A stretch of DNA of 64,000 nucleotides, from assembly GCF_003334255.1 (NCBI RefSeq), contig NZ_QOWU01000003.1; one strand, written 5' to 3'. This document shows positions 21,862 to 22,760 of the stretch, one piece after another. The number at the start of each line of letters is the position of its first letter. The first letter of the stretch is position 1. Under the pieces are notes generated by a model that was given only the letters and a program-made list of their open reading frames with translations, did not search any database and had not been told where the DNA came from. The stretch is from Escherichia coli. Its GTDB lineage: Bacteria; Pseudomonadota; Gammaproteobacteria; Enterobacterales; Enterobacteriaceae. Made by a program: the position numbers and the translations under genes.

Positions 21862-21960
21862 ATTGTTTAAAGCCCCCACGTCCATTAATAATGCATTTGC
21901 ATTACCTTAGTTCAAGCTTATAATTTGAGCAGAAAACAGGCTGTAAAAGGACAGTGAATC

Positions 21961-22296
21961 ATGCCCGCTAATGCTCGCTCTCACGCTGTACTGACCACTG
22001 AATCAAAGGTCACGATACGCGGACAAACAACTATCCCCGCGCCAGTGCGTGAGGCCTTAAAACTGAAGCCAGGCCAGGACAGCATTCATTACGAAATTCT
22101 GCCTGGTGGGCAAGTATTTATGTGCCGACTGGGAGATGAACAGGAGGATCATACTATGAATGCATTTTTGCGTTTTCTGGATGCAGATATCCAGAACAAC
22201 CCGCAAAAAACTCGTCCATTCAACATTCAACAAGGAAAGAAACTTGTCGCTGGCATGGACGTCAACATTGATGATGAGATTGGCGACGACGAATAA
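21961..22296 (+). CDS. prlF: antitoxin PrlF (SohA), AbrB/SpoVT-type, 111 aa
   Basis: MPANARSHAVLTTESKVTIRGQTTIPAPVREALKLKPGQDSIHYEILPGG... with acidic C-terminus; stop overlaps the yhaV start by 1 nt (TAATG). Confidence 0.92.
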   Translation: MPANARSHAVLTTESKVTIRGQTTIPAPVREALKLKPGQDSIHYEILPGGQVFMCRLGDEQEDHTMNAFLRFLDADIQNNPQKTRPFNIQQGKKLVAGMDVNIDDEIGDDE

Positions 22297-22760
22297 TGGA
22301 TTTTCCACAAAGGGTTAATGGTTGGGCGCTATATGCTCATCCCTGTTTTCAGGAAACCTACGACGCTTTAGTTGCCGAAGTCGAGACATTAAAGGGAAAA
22401 GATCCTGAAAATTATCAGAGAAAAGCCGCCACAAAGTTATTGGCGGTAGTCCATAAAGTGATTGAGGAGCATATCACGGTCAATCCATCATCACCGGCAT
22501 TCCGTCATGGCAAGTCGTTAGGCTCTGGGAAAAATAAAGACTGGTCACGGGTAAAATTTGGTGCTGGTCGTTATCGTCTCTTCTTTCGTTATAGTGAAAA
22601 AGAGAAAGTCATCATTCTGGGATGGATGAACGATGAAAACACTCTGCGCACCTACGGTAAAAAAACAGATGCCTATACCGTATTCAGCAAAATGTTAAAA
22701 AGAGGACATCCTCCTGCCGACTGGGAAACCCTCACCCGAGAAACAGAAGAAACCCATTGA
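22296..22760 (+). CDS. yhaV: toxin YhaV (ribosome-dependent mRNA interferase), 154 aa
   Basis: MDFPQRVNGWALYAHPCFQETYDALVAEVETLKGKDPENYQRKAATKLLAVVHK...; translationally coupled to prlF. Confidence 0.92.
   Translation: MDFPQRVNGWALYAHPCFQETYDALVAEVETLKGKDPENYQRKAATKLLAVVHKVIEEHITVNPSSPAFRHGKSLGSGKNKDWSRVKFGAGRYRLFFRYSEKEKVIILGWMNDENTLRTYGKKTDAYTVFSKMLKRGHPPADWETLTRETEETH

Follow-up and report, generated by a model that had tools for sequence, protein, structure and literature searches.

The prlF-yhaV locus

Two small, adjacent genes lie in the same orientation on the + strand of the window, by which we mean the whole 64-kb stretch of Escherichia coli DNA analysed here. The first is prlF (also known as sohA), an open reading frame with an ATG start at 21961-22296, which codes for an antitoxin of 111 aa, and is assigned from the ORF list, family matches, identity to the K-12 protein and a structural model. 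The second is yhaV, also with an ATG start, at 22296-22760, which codes for a toxin of 154 aa and is assigned from the ORF list, Pfam, K-12 identity and a model. The layout is that of a type II toxin-antitoxin module, with the antitoxin gene first and a single promoter-like site upstream of both. The TAA stop codon of prlF (22294-22296) and the ATG start codon of yhaV (22296-22298) share one nucleotide, as can be read directly from the sequence TAATG at 22294-22298 on the + strand. This is the geometry on which the original prediction had based its suggestion of translational coupling.

The original prediction had also named the module as prlF-yhaV, and proposed alignment to K-12 as a check. 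The alignment gave 100% identity: there are no differences over 1002 nt between window positions 21813-22814 and positions 3276854-3277855 of MG1655 (NC_000913.3). The two proteins are identical to PrlF (b3129) and YhaV (b3130) of K-12 MG1655, and the neighbours are the same, with garD upstream and a convergent agaR downstream, so that no difference was found in DNA, proteins or surroundings. A query with the 1-kb locus (coverage at least 80%) found the garD, prlF and yhaV annotation in 5136 of 5426 complete E. coli genomes, and the genes were always so named.

We conclude with high confidence that the locus is prlF-yhaV, the chromosomal type II toxin-antitoxin operon known from E. coli K-12; this judgement covers the whole reading, including autoregulation at the palindrome described below. 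The finding is correct, and both the operon and its autoregulatory palindrome were already known. The original prediction had indeed called it a known module; the importance of such loci for persistence, which was its reason for flagging this one, goes back to work that has been reassessed in the meantime, according to two articles (PMC6016239, PMC5727415).

The antitoxin PrlF

PrlF matches the NCBIfam equivalog NF007429 along its full length (residues 1-111; 170 bits against a cutoff of 125) and Pfam family PF15937 (E = 7e-42). There are also weak matches to AbrB/MazE domains at residues 15-39, namely PF04014 (E = 0.002) and TIGR01439, which at 27.1 bits falls just below its cutoff of 28.3. 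The C-terminal tail is acidic.

A sequence search of the PDB found no solved structure for either PrlF or YhaV. Both proteins were therefore modelled using AlphaFold2, from alignments of homologues collected in this work. The PrlF model is of moderate quality (pLDDT 79). Almost all of its 14 best structural matches are AbrB/SpoVT/MazE-type domains, and the best matches to the N-terminal domain are SpoVT, the N-domain of AbrB, MazE and archaeal AbrB-like proteins, with rmsd values of 1.4-2.2 A over 43-50 residues. The model thus supports a swapped-hairpin DNA-binding domain of the AbrB/MazE/SpoVT type at the N-terminus of PrlF, in line with the AbrB fold originally proposed.

The closest parallel on the antitoxin side is mazEF. 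MazE shares the swapped-hairpin AbrB/MazE fold with the N-domain of PrlF (a weak PF04014 match, and Foldseek matches to 2mrn, 2mru and 1mvf), and the two modules have in common the antitoxin-first gene order and autorepression at a promoter palindrome. The toxins, however, are unrelated: MazF is a ribosome-independent nuclease with the PemK/CcdB fold, whereas YhaV has a RelE fold.

The toxin YhaV

YhaV matches Pfam family PF11663 (E = 8.9e-54, residues 12-150), and gave no match to NCBIfam models. Its AlphaFold2 model is confident (pLDDT 92, pTM 0.88). The top 41 PDB matches found by Foldseek are all RelE/HigB/YoeB/ParE-type toxins or their close relatives, with target-normalised TM scores of up to 0.79. 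The model therefore supports membership of the RelE/ParE (BECR-fold) superfamily, which is where the original prediction had put the toxin and where the family PF11663 has been placed in the literature, as a ribosome-dependent mRNase (PMC11980606).

An alignment of 13 YhaV sequences (41-81% identity) has invariant residues at H15, R85, K87, Y93, R94, R98, R118 and Y127. All of these are present in the window YhaV, so that the loss of toxin residues, which the original prediction had named as evidence against itself, was not found. The invariance reflects conservation in the family, and the alignment does not single out the catalytic residues among them. A review (PMC5408214) describes two conserved arginines whose mutation abolishes YhaV activity. 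Growth inhibition by the toxin and its neutralisation by the bound antitoxin are reported for the identical K-12 proteins in two reviews (PMC7781912, PMC5408214), and YhaV is likewise reported to be a ribosome-dependent mRNA endonuclease, in literature that concerns the identical protein. We note that a figure legend in PMC7781912 labels PDB entry 2KHE as "YhaV monomer", while in the PDB 2KHE is RelE from Thermus thermophilus.

On the toxin side the natural comparison is with relBE. The fold of RelE matches that of YhaV (Foldseek matches 4fxh, 4fxe and 4v7j), and ribosome-dependent cleavage of mRNA is reported for both. RelB, however, is a ribbon-helix-helix antitoxin, unlike the AbrB-type PrlF, and YhaV is longer than RelE by about 60 residues, with an N-terminal β-hairpin and a helical extension.

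The promoter region

On its upstream side the prlF promoter region is bounded by the intrinsic terminator of garD (21835-21870, + strand). It was identified with a repeat finder as a terminator-like site, and consists of a 10-bp stem, AAAACATGGC/GCCATGTTTT (21835-21860), followed by a T-rich tail. Downstream of it lies a perfect 7+7 inverted repeat, with arms TAATGCA (21889-21895) and TGCATTA (21898-21904) on either side of a 2-nt spacer (tt). The original prediction quoted the repeat as taatgcatttgcatta; it is present at 21889-21904, within the span 21887-21905, but its arms are 7 nt long, and not the 5-nt arms AATGC/GCATT that were described. From the repeat itself, its conservation and published reviews, we infer that this is the binding site of PrlF-YhaV, that is, the operator.

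A consensus scan found one strong sigma-70-like site, with 10 of 12 matches and a 17-nt spacer, although the -35 hexamer has only 4 of 6. The predicted -35 sequence TTTGCA (21896-21901, + strand) is wholly within the palindrome, and the predicted -10 sequence TATAAT (21919-21924, + strand) is 14 nt to its 3' side. Transcription is predicted from these elements to start near 21931. A Shine-Dalgarno-like sequence, AAAGGA (21946-21951, + strand), can be read 9 nt 5' of the prlF ATG. There is no clear Shine-Dalgarno sequence 5' of the yhaV ATG, which is consistent with translation of yhaV by restart at the overlapping TAATG, and thus with translational coupling.

As an inverted repeat with a real terminator hairpin only 30 nt upstream, the palindrome might be thought to act in RNA, as a leader hairpin or as a terminator. 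However, a loop of 2 nt is too short for an RNA hairpin, the palindrome is upstream of the predicted -10 sequence and so outside the prlF transcript, and no Rfam match was found in the region at E <= 1. We give such a role practically no credence, and treat the palindrome as a site in DNA.

The region also contains a second repeated element. The CpxR box has the form GTAAA-N5-GTAAA. A direct repeat resembling it, GTAAA-aggaca-GTGAA, is found at 21943-21958, overlapping the Shine-Dalgarno region of prlF, with a 6-nt spacer in place of the 5-nt one. Repression of prlF by CpxR has been reported (PMC9600279), and this repeat may be linked to it.

Significance of the palindrome

A palindrome of this size is on its own not statistically unusual. 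With loops of 0-4 nt allowed, perfect 7+7 repeats occur 27 times in the window, compared with 22.5 +/- 5.6 expected from Markov-1 simulations, and a repeat of this kind occurs in about 7% of simulations of the 148-nt spacer (38% G+C), i.e. P ~0.07. The 16-mer pattern, when up to 2 mismatches are permitted, is found a single time in the window, where 0.32 occurrences are expected. The case for function must therefore rest on other evidence, because by these figures the palindrome could be a chance feature of an AT-rich spacer with no regulatory role, any autoregulation taking place at another site.

Against this, it is the only short palindrome that the repeat finder gave in the prlF spacer besides the garD terminator, and reviews describe binding of the complex to a palindrome in the promoter. 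The strongest argument against it comes from comparison with other genomes, as described in the next section.

Two further sequences were considered and rejected. The sequence TAATGC at 21969-21974 could be a third half-site, but it is coding sequence (prlF codons 3-5) and is absent in an Enterobacter locus (L007). A near-match to the operator core at 8527 is within an ORF of 406 aa and was judged to be due to chance.

Conservation of the probable operator across prlF homologues

Loci containing relatives of PrlF were collected in two ways. A species-level scan of genome contigs with single-protein patterns gave 13 loci, 8 of them with both genes. In addition, 1.84 billion representative proteins were searched exhaustively, with 259 matches at E <= 0.001, and contigs were looked up for ten diverse representatives. 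It was this second route that reached the distant members of the family, as the variants obtained from a word-indexed homologue search were nearly all from E. coli and Shigella. At every locus with a full-length PrlF homologue, a YhaV-family ORF is directly downstream; at one of these (L023) the ORF ends at the end of the contig and has no Pfam record.

The core AATGCAnnTGCATT is present with at most one mismatch between -150 and +60 of the called prlF start at 15 of the 16 loci, corresponding to 14 of 15 non-redundant lineages. The background is 2 matches in ~124 kb, one in 60 kb of the same loci and the other in the 64-kb window (the match at 8527 mentioned above). The homologues that have the operator show PrlF identities of 28-76%, and include a Deinococcota MAG, a Rhizobium MAG, Enterobacter and Pseudocitrobacter. 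Across the lineages, the consensus operator is yAATGCAnnTGCATTr.

The same sequence thus stands upstream of prlF homologues in several phyla, with unrelated flanking DNA. Judged from the sequences, this is the pattern that the site of a cassette-encoded repressor should show, and it would rule out coincidence; we regard a chance origin as extremely improbable. The original suggestion that the palindrome is a plausible autoregulatory operator is in this way borne out by its conservation between phyla, together with the reviews of Schmidt et al. (2007).

A conserved site could also belong to some other regulator of the host, such as CpxR or a global factor, rather than to PrlF-YhaV. The reported repression by CpxR and the nearby box-like repeat at 21943-21958 would fit this, but that repeat differs from the palindrome in both sequence and position. 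In addition, the palindrome accompanies the cassette in Deinococcota, in Rhizobium and in metagenomic lineages, which would not be expected to have host regulators in common with E. coli. Its movement together with prlF-yhaV points to a binding protein encoded by the cassette, and on this comparison a host-specific regulator is unlikely to be what reads it; overall we consider this explanation very unlikely. The preferred reading remains that PrlF-YhaV binds the palindrome.

The position of the operator relative to the promoter is also retained, at least in part. In Enterobacter (L007) and Pseudocitrobacter (L008) the distance from the operator to TATAAT is 14 nt, the same as in the window, and in a third locus (L016) it is 16 nt by alignment. 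Several other lineages have a TTG -35 element directly next to the left arm, and in these the right arm extends into the -10 region. Two lineages have a tandem double operator upstream of prlF (L017/L018, 924-956; L028, 951-985), where E. coli has one.

The only exception is found at L025/L026. Here the sequence upstream of prlF (which starts at 1001) is TAAGGAAaaTTCCTTA, at about 960-990, and has the same 7-2-7 geometry with different bases. The PrlF encoded there has K in place of the conserved R20, and I in place of T23. From these sequences, this may be a natural switch in the specificity of operator recognition.

Two of the loci have features that affect their annotation. In L022 (360-746) the called prlF start is upstream of its own operator, which is at +29 to +44 of the called ORF, and the true start is probably an internal ATG near 411. 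In the Enterobacter locus L007 (Enterobacter sp. BIGb0383, 2836-3287) tblastn gave the YhaV match as two segments that overlap, covering residues 1-107 and 87-151, which suggests a frameshift or an internal duplication in the toxin gene.

A model for autoregulation

The literature on the operon describes the binding on which this reading depends. A PrlF2-YhaV4 hexamer binds a palindrome in the prlF promoter, according to PMC7781912, which reports the work of Schmidt et al. (2007). Repression of the operon by its own complex is described in PMC12107188, as is a 7-bp duplication within prlF that relieves repression of prlF and yhaV alone and has a polar effect on yhaV. A further source, PMC8138530, includes prlF-yhaV among the modules in which the toxin may act as a co-repressor. 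A full-text literature search with the operator string matched only an unrelated paper. The palindrome bound in the 2007 study is very likely the one at 21889-21904, because there is only one candidate palindrome in the promoter besides the garD terminator.

Taken together, the position and conservation of the palindrome and the published binding suggest the following model. Transcription from the predicted sigma-70 promoter (TTTGCA, TATAAT) would produce a bicistronic mRNA, on which prlF is translated first. Ribosomes that end at the TAA would restart at the overlapping ATG and translate yhaV, and coupling at TAATG would bind synthesis of the toxin to that of the antitoxin. PrlF is expected to dimerise through its N-terminal swapped-hairpin domain, while its acidic C-terminal part would hold YhaV to give PrlF2-YhaV4. 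The complex would then bind the 16-bp palindrome TAATGCAttTGCATTA, the toxin serving as co-repressor. Since this site includes the -35 hexamer, its occupation would exclude RNA polymerase and the operon would repress itself. If PrlF were lost or its C-terminus altered, repression would be relieved, and free YhaV would cleave mRNA on the ribosome.

Autorepression as proposed here is suggested by the overlap of the palindrome with the predicted -35 hexamer and by its conservation throughout the family, and the binding is as given in the literature. Occlusion of the -35 hexamer by the bound complex follows from the same overlap, as the probable means of repression. We further infer that one PrlF dimer occupies each 7-bp half-site: the centres of the arms are 9 bp apart, or about one turn of the helix, and this arrangement would fit the reported dimer of hexamers.

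A role for the toxin as co-repressor has parallels in vapBC and fitAB, in which the toxin strengthens binding to the operator, and with which prlF-yhaV is grouped in a review (PMC8138530). VapC and FitB, however, are PIN-domain toxins, and the operators of these systems are different from that of prlF-yhaV.

A probable natural deletion of prlF-yhaV

A predicted hairpin at 22772-22808, ATGCCCGC ... GCGGGCAT with an inner stem (folding energy -21.2 kcal/mol, z = -1.86), lies between the convergent genes yhaV and agaR, and may serve both of them as a weak terminator. The first 8 nt of prlF (21961-21968) recur in the left arm of the hairpin.

In the complete E. coli genomes EC42405, R32_14_1F and RMDEC465, the promoter, operator and Shine-Dalgarno sequence are kept and both prlF and yhaV are gone. 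The break coincides with the 8-nt direct repeat ATGCCCGC, which flanks the two genes in K-12 (21961-21968 and 22772-22779). In EC42405 (L001, 3001-3084) the -10 sequence has degenerated to TCTAAT, and upstream the place of garD is taken by a second agaR-like gene cluster. A related strain with the same upstream sequence (L005) still has prlF. A locus of the EC42405 type thus resembles the product of a deletion more than a site that never held the two genes.

A variable heptanucleotide tract in prlF

Within prlF there is a tract of two copies of TTCAACA (22219-22232, + strand), seen in the sequence and also present as n=2 in K-12. An increase to n=3 is the classical prlF1 allele, which is a frameshift, and the 7-bp duplication in prlF has been equated with it in a PNAS study from 2025 (PMC12107188). 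In the laboratory, the n=3 allele lifts repression of the operon, increases Lon activity and confers β-lactam heteroresistance.

The tract also varies in public sequences. Variants of PrlF, most of them named as Shigella sonnei and others as E. coli, carry cyclic FNIQHST repeats that correspond to n=5 up to about 30, with each of the three exit frames represented. At the DNA level, n=7 was found in four assemblies (L029-L032, 1459-1507). This number is out of frame, and yhaV (at ~1571-2035) is broken in three of the four (L030, L031 and L032), by stop codons in place of W143 and S66 and by a frameshift near codon 75. One of them (L031) also has a change in the operator (~1129-1144), from TAATGCA to TAATTCA. 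These n=7 loci suggest that the module decays step by step, or that such decay is compensated. The tract is longer in the complete genome of E. coli SCU-106 (L033, 800-897), where n=14 is in frame and both yhaV and the operator are intact. A query of complete E. coli genomes with the flanking sequence gave one clear expansion of the tract among the sampled matches listed.

Out-of-frame alleles replace the toxin-binding C-terminus of PrlF, as the n=3 prlF1 allele does. It is conceivable, if rather doubtful at present, that (TTCAACA)n is a natural slipped-strand switch and not just a laboratory hot spot. A search of the available literature for prlF with a natural variable repeat found no paper that links the two.

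Implications

For anyone engineering or deleting prlF-yhaV, the value of this analysis is a precise map of the operator, the promoter, the coupling site and the hot-spot repeat. The family-wide operator consensus is a further gain. The variant TAAGGAAaaTTCCTTA forms, with an operator that is otherwise nearly invariant from Enterobacteriaceae to Deinococcota, a natural pair for the study of recognition specificity. The heptanucleotide tract merits closer attention than the palindrome, and if any part of the locus rewards further study, it will be this one. It accounts for the repeated appearance of one and the same prlF mutation in evolution experiments, and its copy number differs greatly among natural isolates of Shigella sonnei and E. 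coli.
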